Assembly: GCA_020059605.1 (NCBI GenBank)
Contig: JAGVBT010000120.1
Coordinates: 1,582 to 65,581, forward strand
Length of the DNA: 64,000 nt
Direction of reading: 5' to 3'
Origin: Deltaproteobacteria bacterium
GTDB lineage: Bacteria; Desulfobacterota; BSN033; UBA1163
Position 1 is the stretch's first letter, and the number at the start of each line of letters is the position of its first letter. The position numbers and the translations under genes are program-made. Positions 13,551-49,622 of this stretch are shown piece by piece. The notes beneath the pieces were generated by a model, which had not been told where the DNA came from, ran no database searches, and saw only the letters and a program-made list of their open reading frames with translations.

Positions 13551-13625
13551 TGGCTGGGGTGGGAGGATTCGAACCTCCGAGTCCAGGTTCCAAAGACCTG
13601 TGTCTTACCGCTTGACGACACCCCA
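13551..13625 (-). tRNA. tRNA-Gln (anticodon UUG), CCA encoded
   Basis: Folded by hand: acceptor TGGGGTG/CACCCCA, anticodon stem CAGGT/ACCTG, loop CTTTGGA, T-arm GGAGG-TTCGAAT-CCTCC, discriminator G plus CCA. Confidence 0.85.
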
Positions 13626-15451: not shown

Positions 15452-15670
15452 TTATGCCGTCTCCACGCTTTTCACCTCCGGGACCTGTTGCTTTAGAACT
15501 TTCTCCACGCCCATTTTCAGGGTCATCTGGGACATGGGGCACCCTCCGCAGGCTCCGGTTAGCCTCACCTTCACCACACCATCAACCACATCGACCAATT
15601 CGATATCGCCTCCATCCGCCATAAGGGCGGGGCGAATCTTTTCCAATGCCTTCTCCACGCTTTCTCTCAT
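15452..15670 (-). CDS. NifU-like Fe-S cluster assembly domain protein (Nfu type)
   Basis: 72 aa; GGDIELVDVVDGVVKVRLTGACGGCPMS CxxC motif of the NifU C-terminal domain. Confidence 0.8.
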   Translation of the reverse strand: MRESVEKALEKIRPALMADGGDIELVDVVDGVVKVRLTGACGGCPMSQMTLKMGVEKVLKQQVPEVKSVETA

Positions 15671-15761
15671 CTCTTTTCACCTCCTCCCAGGCTCGCCATC
15701 AATACCCTTCTCCTGTTTCTTTTCCTAAAATTATCATAACACAAAATATTGGAATGTCGAC

Positions 15762-15800
15762 AAAATAAAAAGCCCTCCCTGAGGGGAAGGCCTTCGGCAG
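15762..15800 (-). terminator. Putative intrinsic terminator downstream of the Cys-rich gene pair
   Basis: Minus strand GCCTTCCCCTCAGGGAGGGC hairpin followed by TTTTTATTTTG. Confidence 0.45.
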
Positions 15801-15835: not shown

Positions 15836-16027
15836 TTAATTCCCCTTTTTCTCCATCTCCTCCAGTTTCGACCGGAGATGCTTCTTGAGGGCATCGGGTC
15901 TCTCGCAGAACAACACATCTCCCTCGCAGGTCGCACTGCCACTGTCGATATCACAGTAGCCGATTCCTTTCCCCATGCCTAAACTGTCCGGTTTTCTAAA
16001 TAGGGGACATTTCTTGCCCTCTACCAT
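15836..16027 (-). CDS. Small cysteine-rich protein (63 aa), paralog 2; C-x19-C-x9-C-x7-C
   Basis: MVEGKKCPLFRK...GYCDIDSGSATCEGDVLFCERPD; its ATG overlaps the upstream paralog's stop (ATGGTAG); same Cys spacing as paralog 1. Confidence 0.6.
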   Translation of the reverse strand: MVEGKKCPLFRKPDSLGMGKGIGYCDIDSGSATCEGDVLFCERPDALKKHLRSKLEEMEKKGN

Positions 16028-16218
16028 CTTTGGCCTCCTTCCCGTCTCTTTTCCTCCAGCAAATGTTTTCTGAAGAGATCGACCTTCTTGCATGCATGGA
16101 TATTACCCCTGCAGACCATCCAGTCATGGTCAAGATCGCAATACCCCCTGAAGCCACTCCCTTTCGAATGGCCGTACTCTCGATAAAAAGAACATTTCTT
16201 AAAACCCAACACTTTCAT
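16021..16218 (-). CDS. Small cysteine-rich protein (65 aa), paralog 1; C-x19-C-x9-C-x7-C
   Basis: MKVLGFKKCSFYREYGHSKGSGFRGYCDLDHDWMVCRGNIHACKKVD; AAGGGAG RBS 4 nt before the ATG. Confidence 0.6.
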   Translation of the reverse strand: MKVLGFKKCSFYREYGHSKGSGFRGYCDLDHDWMVCRGNIHACKKVDLFRKHLLEEKRREGGQRW

Positions 16219-16248
16219 CTCCCTTGAGCTGTAATATAAAAACCAAGT

Positions 16249-16279
16249 AAAAAACCCGTGGATGGAGGAATACCACGGG
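16249..16279 (-). terminator. Intrinsic terminator or attenuator hairpin 20 nt upstream of the RBS of Cys-rich paralog 1
   Basis: Minus strand CCCGUGG-UAUUCCUCCAU-CCACGGG followed by UUUUUU. Confidence 0.6.
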
Positions 16280-16725
16280 TTGACGGTCCAATCTCCACTT
16301 CGGCAACCCGGCTATCCAAGGGATTTGCTATTGCAAATCCACCAAAGACCACCTTTAGTTTTTAGCCAAAGGTAAGAAACCAATTTTGGCTTCTTCTTGG
16401 ACCCGTGCCTGCACGCCTTAGTGCCAGCCAATATTAGGCAGGTATTTCGGCTTGCAAGCACTCCTGCATCCTGTTTTGCCTGACTGCTGTAGTCAGGCGT
16501 TTCGGCACGCAGGCGTGGCTTTCCGTCCCACGATTACTCGTGGTTTGGCTTTATCGAAAATTTTAAGATATTTCTTTTGGTGAGATAATCAGCAATTATA
16601 ATGCCAATCCGGCATTCAGGATGAAACCTTTTGAATTCAATAGAGTATGTTGAAGAGTGGAATTTCAGGAAGAATGAATACTGCCTTTTTTTGTTTCCCT
16701 AAGAAAAATTTTTACTGAGGAAGGA
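16280..16725 (-). ncRNA. ORF-free structured leader or sRNA candidate; possible riboswitch or attenuator for the Cys-rich gene pair
   Basis: About 450 nt with no ORF of 60 aa or more in any frame in a genome that is otherwise densely coding; several stable hairpins (AGCCAAA...TTTGGCT, CCTGACT-n5-AGTCAGG, GGATTTGC-n4-GCAAATCC); ends in the terminator hairpin directly upstream of an RBS. Confidence 0.35.
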
Positions 16726-46560: not shown

Positions 46561-49490
<2,930 letters not shown>

Positions 49491-49622
49491 TTCCTAAACC
49501 CTAAATATACCAAAAAGTTACAAATGTCAAATGAAAAACGGAAAATGAAAGCAAAAGGTATGCCAATTTAAGGAGAGATTTGGAAGTTCAACAATGATCT
49601 TCAACCCATCCGCACGGCGGGT

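Follow-up and report, generated by a model that had tools for sequence, protein, structure and literature searches.

The c-di-GMP-I (GEMM-I) riboswitches, described by the Rfam family RF01051 and represented by Vc2 of Vibrio cholerae, possess a three-helix core with a GNRA-capped P1b and the ligand-contact nucleotides G20, A47 and C92. These features, the signature AAAG...CAAACC...GGGAC...AAAGCC...GCCGAA, the location in a 5' leader with an intrinsic terminator, and a regulon with pili, PilZ and signalling genes are all shared by the RNA described here, which is encoded on the minus strand of a 64-kb stretch of DNA (the window). The RNA differs from RF01051 by a flipped C21-G46 pair, by two insertions in P2 (109 and 81 nt) which bring the total length to 263 nt, and by the systematic association with a sigma-54 promoter.

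The second close relative is RF03167 (c-di-GMP-I-GGC), an orphan variant which was reportedly defined by Weinberg et al. in 2017 (PNAS) and is said to be named after positions 20/47/92. The P2 and 3'-tail of the present RNA are near-identical to the consensus of this variant (CcAcGGguC...GacAGCCggGcUGCcgaag). The difference lies at model position 37, the equivalent of A47, where the consensus is G but the window and every relative seen have A; the window also scores just 39.5 bits with this model. The c-AMP-GMP (GEMM-Ib) riboswitches of Geobacter, reportedly the subject of Kellenberger 2015 and Nelson 2015 (both cited in PMC7266159), have the same fold, transcription-terminator platforms and hosts of the classical Deltaproteobacteria. 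However, those carry A at position 20, whereas G20 was present in every copy of the RNA described here.

The locus is quite probably explained as a unit in which a sigma-54-type promoter would be followed by a c-di-GMP-I riboswitch, an intrinsic terminator and two 4-Cys protein genes with coupled translation, and in which the leader would act as an OFF switch.

Class, extent and modules of the leader aptamer

In the initial annotation, about 450 nt upstream of the Cys-rich genes (16280-16725) were described as a structured leader with the architecture of a riboswitch or an attenuator, in which no known aptamer, c-di-GMP included, was recognized by eye. The structure was supported by folding, as the leader folded better than shuffled sequences (z = -5.1) and 0 of 100 shuffles were equally good. 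ORFs of 60 aa or more were absent from 16280-16725 on either strand, as had been stated. The aptamer, on the other hand, turned out to be of a known class. The Rfam search that had been recommended gave a match to RF01051 with 39.9 bits, over the gathering threshold (GA) of 35, at 16462-16559 (minus strand). The RF03167 score was obtained over 16500-16558 and is under the GA of 59. Both alignments of the window were truncated, and the 3' half of the RF01051 alignment was mis-registered. The two inserted modules are the reason why P2 and the 3' end were mis-aligned by the Rfam model and missed by eye.

The comparison with relatives gave a clearer picture. A near-invariant core of 80 nt is shared by the ~140 relatives that were collected from genomes and from metagenomes. 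All 16 minimal relatives tested reached 62-73 bits on RF03167, above its GA, and the genome loci scored similarly. By sequence, the leader RNA is assigned to the c-di-GMP-I (GEMM-I) clan, being an expanded variant of an already known riboswitch class. The ligand-contact positions G20, A47 and C92 were placed by the Rfam model alignment at 16549, 16522 and 16303, respectively, and are invariant among the relatives. The pair adjoining the pocket is C21-G46 in all copies, compared to G21-C46 in the canonical consensus.

According to the alignment with relatives and the MFE fold, the complete aptamer occupies 16298-16560 (minus strand) and is approximately 3-fold larger than the usual ~85 nt. It starts with the 5' strand of P1, UUUUCG (16560-16555), and the junction J, AUAAAG (16554-16549), which ends with G20. 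These are followed by P1a/P1b with a GUAA-capped hairpin (16543-16528) and by GACGGAAA (16527-16520), which includes A47. The 3' strand of P2, GGAUAGCCGGGUU (16305-16317), is invariant in the family, and the 3' tail GCCGAAG (16304-16298) includes C92. The three-helix architecture of P1, P1a-P1b with the GNRA loop, and P2 was recovered by the anchored alignment and the MFE fold; in the latter, computed for the 264-nt segment 16560-16297, P1 is closed. Among 51 minimal relatives, 91.6% of the cells pair in the given structure, compared with 21-46% in a slid control in which the 3' partners were moved by 1-3 columns. Alternative 3' ends of the aptamer at 16500 (RF03167) and 16462 (RF01051) were rejected, as the alignment of relatives supports the third GCCGAAG, at 16304-16298.

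The first inserted module, insA (16405-16513), consists of 109 nt with two hairpins and interrupts the P2 5' strand between GCCACG and GGGUCC. The second, insB (16318-16398), consists of 81 nt with three hairpins and replaces the terminal loop of P2. Both modules were present or absent among relatives with identical flanks (alignment A4). The alignment with homologous upstream regions, also recommended in the initial annotation, revealed that P1 and the top of P2 covary among the minimal relatives, as do positions of the modules themselves. The insA consensus contains two helices with compensatory changes in 5 of 19 pairs (13 distinct versions) and has a predicted stability of -54.4 kcal/mol; for insB, such changes were detected in 10 of 34 predicted pairs (8 versions). 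Two decoy copies of the aptamer tail GCCGAAA are held by insA. A third optional module, insC, adjoins the pocket in relatives, and some of the insC-bearing relatives (e.g. L040 and L048) are under every Rfam threshold.

An apparent orphan leader is in this way resolved into a known riboswitch class. The case demonstrates that standard annotation can fail, since the window passes a single Rfam model and does so with a wrong alignment, and nested insertions may hide further members of known riboswitch classes. A large environmental GEMM-I subclass with one invariant core and three optional structured modules is a testable lead.

Promoter, terminator and the proposed switch

A sigma-54-type motif, TGGCATTATAATTGCT, with the -24 GG and -12 GC elements is located at 16591-16606 (minus strand), about 38 nt upstream of the aptamer. 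It satisfies TGGCAC-N5-TTGCW, with a distance of exactly 10 nt between GG and GC. Of 137 non-identical relatives, 106 carry the strict motif TGGCAY-N5-TTGCW at 28-46 nt upstream of the core of the aptamer, against a background of 1.8% per 120-nt window. Transcription of the riboswitch unit probably begins at a sigma-54 promoter, with the start predicted near 16580. Of the ~450 nt regarded as the leader in the initial annotation, the structured part stands, but only ~330 nt are likely to be transcribed, and 16607-16725 is likely to be promoter-upstream DNA. By motif scans, no GGDEF, GAFTGA, RpoN box or PilZ was detected in the 64-kb window, and a literature search for a link between sigma-54 and GEMM returned none, the matches being author names or Gemmatimonas. 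With a systematic coupling of the subclass to sigma-54 promoters, initiation that depends on an activator would be combined with termination that depends on a second messenger, which is a second testable lead.

The sigma-54 motif also bears on the view that the leader is nothing but the 3' UTR of the secreted-protein gene upstream: being conserved between that gene and the aptamer, it speaks for a separate start of transcription. Attenuation through a uORF has also been considered. The GTG ORF, described earlier as having 48 codons, does exist and ends at the ATGA junction. However, it comprises 45 codons (16215-16352), has no Shine-Dalgarno sequence at a workable distance and lies wholly inside the aptamer and terminator, covering insB, the 3' strands of P2 and P1, and the terminator. 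The underlying sequence is missing or of other length in relatives without insB, and the ORF, for which the RNA structure accounts, has no independent support. Both readings, the uORF and the 3' UTR, are considered very unlikely.

The intrinsic terminator noticed in the initial annotation was confirmed at 16249-16280 (minus strand) as ACCCGUGG-UAUUCCUCCAU-CCACGGGU-U6, with a 9-bp stem, an 11-nt loop and a stability of -14.8 kcal/mol. It lies ~23 nt before the AAGGGAG ribosome-binding site (16225-16219). It was missed by the terminator scan due to its loop, as the maximum loop allowed by the scan is 8 nt. The 5' arm of the terminator is complementary to two stretches of the aptamer, CACGGGU (16407-16401) and GCCACG (16519-16514). 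In the window, the duplexes between aptamer and platform have an energy of -15.0 kcal/mol, against the -14.8 kcal/mol of the terminator hairpin. The duplex energies range from -15 to -28 kcal/mol and are comparable to those of terminator hairpins. Among 59 class-1 platforms of the relatives, 58 have the stem CCCGUGG...CACGGG unchanged, and CCGUGG(CUU), complementary to AAGCCACGG of the aptamer, is kept in both of the two terminator designs. Descent of duplicated riboswitch-terminator cassettes from a common ancestor could partly account for the conserved terminator sequence.

The complementarity suggests the following mechanism. In the ligand-free RNA, the single-stranded junction and the 5' strand of P2 (AAGCCACGGG) would pair with CCCGUGG of the terminator 5' arm. 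This pairing would act as an antiterminator, and the miniprotein genes would be transcribed. When c-di-GMP is bound, the junction and the P2 5' strand would be locked in the aptamer, the terminator would form and transcription would stop. As the terminator 5' arm is complementary to the J/P2 strand of the aptamer, ligand binding probably leads to termination, and we infer an OFF switch. In equilibrium folding, the antiterminator fold was 4-12 kcal/mol above the terminator fold; since the antiterminator was not favoured, the direction of the switch rests on the conserved complementarity.

The same riboswitch could have another output. It could be an ON switch acting via read-through, or it could control translation or RNA stability next to a leaky constitutive terminator. 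The RNAfold MFE structure contains the terminator without any ligand term, which is consistent with such an output. In this MFE structure, a conserved GNRA hairpin, GCAAAAGRAAUUUUGC, is formed by class-1 platforms, and it uses the 3' strand of P1 in place of P1 formation. This hairpin is absent from the window, and there insA splits the antiterminator strand so that just 6-7 bp of the antiterminator complementarity are left. However, no sequence was found that specifically sequesters the terminator arm in the ligand-bound state, and the sole conserved complementarity to the terminator belongs to the strand that is buried by the folded aptamer. Another output is regarded as doubtful, and termination upon ligand binding is the preferred reading.

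The 4-Cys genes, the regulon and the ligand

The gene of miniprotein A (16021-16218, minus strand) encodes 65 aa from ATG, and that of miniprotein B (15836-16027, minus strand) encodes 63 aa; each protein contains four Cys residues. The start codon of B overlaps the stop codon of A in ATGGTAG. The proposal that these are overlapping paralogous genes was borne out by the ORFs and by BLASTP, which gave 38% identity with E = 3e-11. The spacing of the cysteines was determined to be C-x17-C-x8-C-x6-C in both paralogs (C9, C27, C36 and C43 in A), which replaces the earlier C-x19-C-x9-C-x7-C. The lengths of 65 and 63 aa noted before are correct from the annotated starts. However, the true length of A is probably 63 aa, from GTG at 16212, because the spacing between the Shine-Dalgarno sequence and the ATG at 16218 is zero and the homologues in relatives begin at the codon matching that GTG.

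The tandem order of A and B is kept in loci L001-L010 and in others, and a natural fusion of A and B in one protein (P0081) was found. A search of the miniproteins against Pfam gave no match at E <= 1 and NCBIfam no meaningful match, and the DUF assignment hoped for in the initial annotation was not obtained. The PDB likewise contained no sequence match at E <= 10. With AlphaFold2, pLDDT values of 48.5 and 51.7 were reached for the two paralogs (alignments of 51 and 74 sequences); such models are uninformative, so fold matches to them would be meaningless. By the profile search, 161 representatives of the 4-Cys family were collected at E <= 1e-3. The domain was fused to PilZ in 3 proteins, to REC in 4 and to GGDEF in 1. 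A further high-scoring match, P0082 (1867 aa, 19 stretches), was dropped as spurious; this protein is eukaryote-like, with Cys repeats of the kringle type.

WhiB-like proteins are small 4-Cys metal or Fe-S proteins. The miniproteins are analogous to them in their small size and four conserved cysteines, but they have their own Cys spacing, and kinship between the two groups is not established. Miniproteins A and B probably act jointly as a metal- or cluster-binding pair.

The aptamer was found upstream of miniprotein homologues, with the terminator conserved, in 21 of the 25 genome loci that had been found through the protein. Together with the Rfam match over the threshold, this agrees with the riboswitch architecture supposed in the initial annotation. 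The genes downstream of the aptamer subclass encode 4-Cys proteins (~30%), Flp pilins, N-methyl pilins, PilZ and receiver proteins, the 4-Cys domain being the commonest cargo. This context, with PilZ, pilin and REC genes in the regulon and fusions with GGDEF and PilZ, suggests c-di-GMP as the ligand of the window aptamer. The A/B pair is probably a module of the c-di-GMP network, as the domain of A and B recurs in fusions with PilZ, receiver and GGDEF domains. Being both the commonest cargo and a partner in these fusions, the 4-Cys domain is a candidate for a new part of the c-di-GMP signalling of syntrophic Thermodesulfobacteriota, and a further testable lead.

The same aptamer fold could serve another ligand, with the subclass or the inserted modules sensing a related metabolite or a cyclic dinucleotide other than c-di-GMP. 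The orphan GGC variant is the sister of the subclass, and the relatives of the window RNA score best on RF03167, not on RF01051. The invariant C21-G46, as opposed to the canonical G21-C46, means that the specificity could differ, and the large conserved insertions insA and insB might have a part in this. However, A at model position 37 in every copy seen restores the canonical G20/A47/C92 triad, G20 instead of A20 argues against cGAMP, and the gene context with PilZ, pili and GGDEF fusions is the classic one of c-di-GMP. Another ligand is unlikely. In a broader proposal, the flipped pocket pair, the kinship with the GGC variant and the conserved modules would give the expanded aptamer a different or second ligand specificity, and the A/B pair would be an output module of cyclic-dinucleotide signalling, not recognised before, that senses redox state or metals. 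This combination is improbable to a similar degree. If true, a free-standing A/B module would be governed by the riboswitch and a fused one by PilZ, REC or GGDEF. The most probable ligand of the aptamer is c-di-GMP.

The NifU neighbour and the end of the unit

The presence of a NifU gene downstream was confirmed: the protein of 72 aa encoded at 15452-15670 (minus strand) matched PF01106 with E = 3.5e-32. Between it and the gene of miniprotein B, a terminator-like hairpin with a 12-bp stem followed by a T-run was found at 15768-15795 (minus strand), which by its sequence appears to mark the end of the riboswitch-controlled unit. A match to ctRNA_p42d at 15760-15796 (23.9 bits, GA 50) is merely this terminator after gene B. 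A promoter-like site (15760-15733) is located 3' of the hairpin.

The initial annotation had suggested a novel riboswitch responding to a metal or Fe-S signal, in keeping with the four conserved cysteines of the cargo and the adjacent NifU-domain gene. However, the RNA matches a known aptamer class of nucleotide second messengers, and elsewhere the same aptamer controls Flp and type IV pilins, PilZ and receiver genes besides those of 4-Cys proteins. Moreover, NifU lies behind a separate terminator and is still adjacent where the aptamer is absent. A metal- or Fe-S-responsive riboswitch is extremely unlikely. The NifU gene is 90-97% identical and adjacent in the relatives, including the aptamer-less loci L012 and L014. 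Due to the hairpin at 15795-15768 and the adjacency kept without the aptamer, NifU is regarded as a syntenic neighbour and not as a demonstrated cargo, and it is probably a separate transcription unit.

An expanded c-di-GMP-I aptamer overlooked in the leader

The initial annotation placed an ORF-free, structured leader with a terminator just ahead of the ribosome-binding site, and this physical description was largely right. No ORF of 60 aa or more was found on either strand of 16280-16725, the 511-nt leader folded far more strongly than shuffled sequence (z = -5.1), and an intrinsic terminator (ACCCGUGG-11-CCACGGGU-U6; 16280-16249, minus strand; -14.8 kcal/mol) is located about 23 nt before AAGGGAG. 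The riboswitch-like reading was also right in kind. The absence of a match to any known aptamer did not hold, as the Rfam search resulted in an above-threshold hit to c-di-GMP-I (RF01051) at 16462-16559, 39.9 bits vs a gathering score (GA) of 35. The hit to the variant c-di-GMP-I-GGC (RF03167) at 16500-16558 was sub-threshold, 39.5 bits vs GA 59. The suggested metal or Fe-S ligand and the proposed upstream ORF found no support. The leader is a known riboswitch class, overlooked because two nested insertions interrupt the aptamer.

The two Rfam alignments were concordant in the 5' half (AAAGCCAAACC-ACGA-GUAA-UCGU-GGGACGGAAAGCC). Since they were discordant at the 3' end, with mismatched pairs of helix P2 in both, an interruption of P2 was suspected. 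When the window leader was placed side by side with relatives carrying one or no inserted module, one near-invariant core was obtained: uUGyCG-AUAAAG-CC-AAA-CCACGA-GUAA-UCGUGG-GAC-GG-AA-AGCC-A-CGG-GUCCnn...nnGGAU-AG-CCG-GGUU-GC-CG-AA-rCA. The core is broken up by three optional structured modules. InsA (16513-16405, minus strand) lies between GCCACG and GGGUCC, and insB (16398-16318, minus strand) takes the place of the P2 loop. The site of insC is the P1a/P1b internal loop between GGGAC and GG-AAAGCC, adjoining the binding pocket; this module is absent from the window in the alignment with relatives. Because both insA and insB are present, the complete aptamer extends over 263 nt, 16560-16298 (minus strand), and is closed by UUUCG/CGAAG.

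In the predicted minimum free energy fold of this segment, P1, P1b and P2 all form, as do the two modules. Compensatory changes were detected in 5 of the 19 pairs of insA (two helices, 13 versions) and in 10 of the 34 pairs of insB (three hairpins, 8 versions). Among 51 distinct minimal relatives, 91.6% of cells pair in the core structure vs 21-46% in slid controls. Only outer P1 and the upper end of P2 covary, the rest of the core being invariant. InsA also contains two near-copies of the aptamer 3' tail, UGCCGAAAC at ~16506 and AAGCCGAAAU at ~16450, which misled both Rfam alignments and might serve as decoy P1 partners in co-transcriptional folding. About a third of the copies listed carry insC (e.g. 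L001, L002, L011, L016, L020, L040, L048), ~54 nt with two hairpins, and their aptamers are about 121-129 nt long.

The RF03167 scores of minimal relatives were 62-73 bits (16/16 tested, similar for other relatives scored). Copies with one insertion matched RF01051 only or reached ~60 bits, and some insC copies (L040, L048) were below every Rfam threshold. The scaffold is like that of RF03167. However, model position 37, equivalent to A47 of the Vibrio cholerae prototype Vc2, is A in the window and all relatives, whereas the GGC consensus is G; the name "GGC" presumably refers to positions 20/47/92. The contact nucleotides resemble canonical RF01051, G20 and C92 included, but G21-C46, the pair beside them, is replaced by C21-G46. 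By its GGC-like scaffold and canonical contacts the RNA is assigned to the c-di-GMP-I clan as a member of mixed type. The GEMM-Ib (cGAMP) type was rejected because position 20 is G.

Miniprotein genes and the putative c-di-GMP regulon

The two paralogous small ORFs reported previously were recovered on the minus strand as miniprotein A (16021-16218, 65 aa from ATG) and miniprotein B (15836-16027, 63 aa), overlapping in ATGGTAG and sharing 38% identity (BLASTP, E = 3e-11). The four shared cysteines were confirmed; their spacing is C-x17-C-x8-C-x6-C and not x19/x9/x7. The Shine-Dalgarno of A directly abuts the ATG at 16218. Miniprotein A is probably also 63 aa, since in its relatives translation begins at the counterpart of the GTG at 16212. 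The downstream NifU-domain gene (15452-15670, minus strand; 72 aa) matched PF01106, and the interval up to gene B holds a strong hairpin of terminator type (15795-15768) as well as a promoter-like site.

The miniproteins had no match in Pfam, NCBIfam or PDB, and the AlphaFold models were poor (pLDDT ~50), their only elements being one beta-hairpin and a helix at the C terminus. The four invariant cysteines suggest binding of Zn or Fe-S, and the latter would be in keeping with the conserved NifU neighbour. Translational coupling and a natural fusion of A-type and B-type domains (P0081, 131 aa) suggest an A/B heterodimer.

In an exhaustive profile search, the 4-Cys domain had no more than 161 representatives (E <= 1e-3). 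It stands N-terminal to PilZ (P0108, P0142, P0165), receiver (REC; P0119, P0138, P0162, P0177), GGDEF (P0210) and DUF6982 (P0208) domains. Among the copies listed, 4-Cys miniproteins are the commonest first ORF downstream of the aptamer subclass (~30%), the others including Flp pilins (PF04964), N-methyl pilins (PF07963), PilZ (PF07238) and receiver proteins (PF00072). Judged from sequence, these genes and fusions are a c-di-GMP regulon signature, and together they suggest that the 4-Cys domain is a module of the c-di-GMP network. The free-standing domain would be controlled at the RNA level, and the fused one coupled to c-di-GMP or phosphorelay domains. The second commonest gene directly after the aptamer in the copies listed encodes a conserved 38-aa hydrophobic membrane peptide (MKTLWIGMMAVTFVLGTG...; L032, L053, L057, L070, L081, L091, L094, L098, L116, L141) with no Pfam match.

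Expression platform and proposed direction of the switch

The RNA between aptamer and gene follows two designs. Class 1 (59 of 117 distinct platforms among the copies listed) has a GNRA hairpin, GCAAAAGRAAUUUUGC, which competes for the P1 3' strand; its adjoining terminator has an invariant upper stem, CCCGUGG...CACGGG, and a covarying stem base. Most remaining platforms, roughly half of the copies listed, form class 2 (L034, L038-L043, L048, L050, L061, L120 and others), in which the same aptamer is followed by a different terminator, ACCGGAUUrCC-GUGGCUU...-GGyAAUCCGGU-U5 (ACCGGAUUACC-GUGGCUU...-GGUAAUCCGGU-U5). Here GUGGCUU is placed in the terminator loop and is complementary to the aptamer AAGCCAC. 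CCGUGG(CUU) is kept in both classes and is the exact complement of the aptamer junction/P2 5' strand, AAGCCACGG(G).

A toehold-type antiterminator may be proposed, in which the junction/P2 5' strand would pair with CCGUGG(CUU). The calculated energies of antiterminator duplex vs terminator hairpin were -28.4 vs -17.6 kcal/mol in L015, -26.1 vs -19.1 in L004, -20.7 vs -22.4 in the class-2 locus L120, and -15.0 vs -14.8 in the window. Two results count against such an antiterminator: in equilibrium folding the terminator fold is predicted to be favoured by 4-12 kcal/mol even without ligand, and in the window insA splits the antiterminator strand, leaving 6-7 bp. Under the toehold model, this strand would be free only while no ligand locks the pocket (A47-A49 and lower P2), and ligand binding would accordingly lead to termination. 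An OFF switch is, on balance, the direction we favour, with modest confidence.

Distribution of the cassette and its promoter motif

The profile of the two miniproteins retrieved ~80 clusters of 45-90-aa proteins without a Pfam domain and 25 genome loci, all from uncultured Syntrophaceae, Syntrophorhabdus, Thermodesulfobacteriota or "Deltaproteobacteria" MAGs. The same aptamer core was present upstream of the miniprotein gene in 21 of the 25, and the gene order TrxB, secreted protein, [aptamer], miniA, miniB, NifU, lipoprotein, IspE is kept. A metagenome scan with a 28-nt core pattern added at least 120 stretches, giving at least 145 copies with the genome loci. The copies listed fall into length classes of ~67-73, 121-129, 144-208 and 253 nt; among these ~140, the window and L026 have the longest aptamer. 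In the Logan assemblies L026 (SRR29054605) and L027 (ERR4067841), the window's miniA, miniB and NifU recur with 100% identity (lipoprotein and IspE: 99-100%), and the expanded aptamer of L026 agrees with the window over the portion present on its contig. Because of the 100% identities, the same organism is considered present in at least these two other public samples, a potential source of transcript data. The metagenome contig L109 has three aptamers within ~5 kb (610, 3994, 5575), each preceding a different gene, which points to a regulon of several operons within a single organism.

A sigma-54 -24/-12 motif, TGGCATTATAATTGCT, was matched at 16606-16591 (minus strand). The transcribed leader is accordingly predicted at ~330 nt, 16607-16725 being DNA upstream of the putative promoter. 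The strict motif TGGCAY-N5-TTGCW precedes the core by 28-46 nt in 106 of the 137 non-identical copies listed, vs a background of 1.8% per 120 nt; this predicted promoter is systematically coupled to the riboswitch. L012 and L014 share the synteny of TrxB, secreted protein, miniprotein(s) and NifU and a sigma-54-like motif, but their promoter and RBS are separated by neither aptamer nor terminator. Riboswitch and terminator thus appear to form a cassette that can be inserted at this place and has been gained or lost. This sigma-54 coupling, the modular expansion to 263 nt (the largest of the ~140 copies listed), the disagreement of scaffold and contact nucleotides with Rfam's variant models, and the family of uncharacterised 4-Cys cargo proteins appear to be new, none being found in the searchable literature, of which coverage is incomplete.

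In syntenic loci a conserved block, ACAAAAAAGGC(A/T), precedes the -24 element by ~95 nt (~16655-16685, minus strand, in the window; equivalent position in L007, L009, L010, L013, L016, L020, L021). It may bind an activator or IHF, or mark where the transcript of the upstream gene ends. The sole other Rfam/ARAGORN feature of the 64-kb window is a tRNA-Gln (UUG) at 13551-13625 (minus strand), between ispE-like and prs-like genes. The only other strict sigma-54-like motif, TGGCATACCTTTTGCT (49550-49565, minus strand), precedes by ~60 nt an ORF of 414 aa (48246-49490) which by eye resembles cofactor-independent phosphoglycerate mutase.
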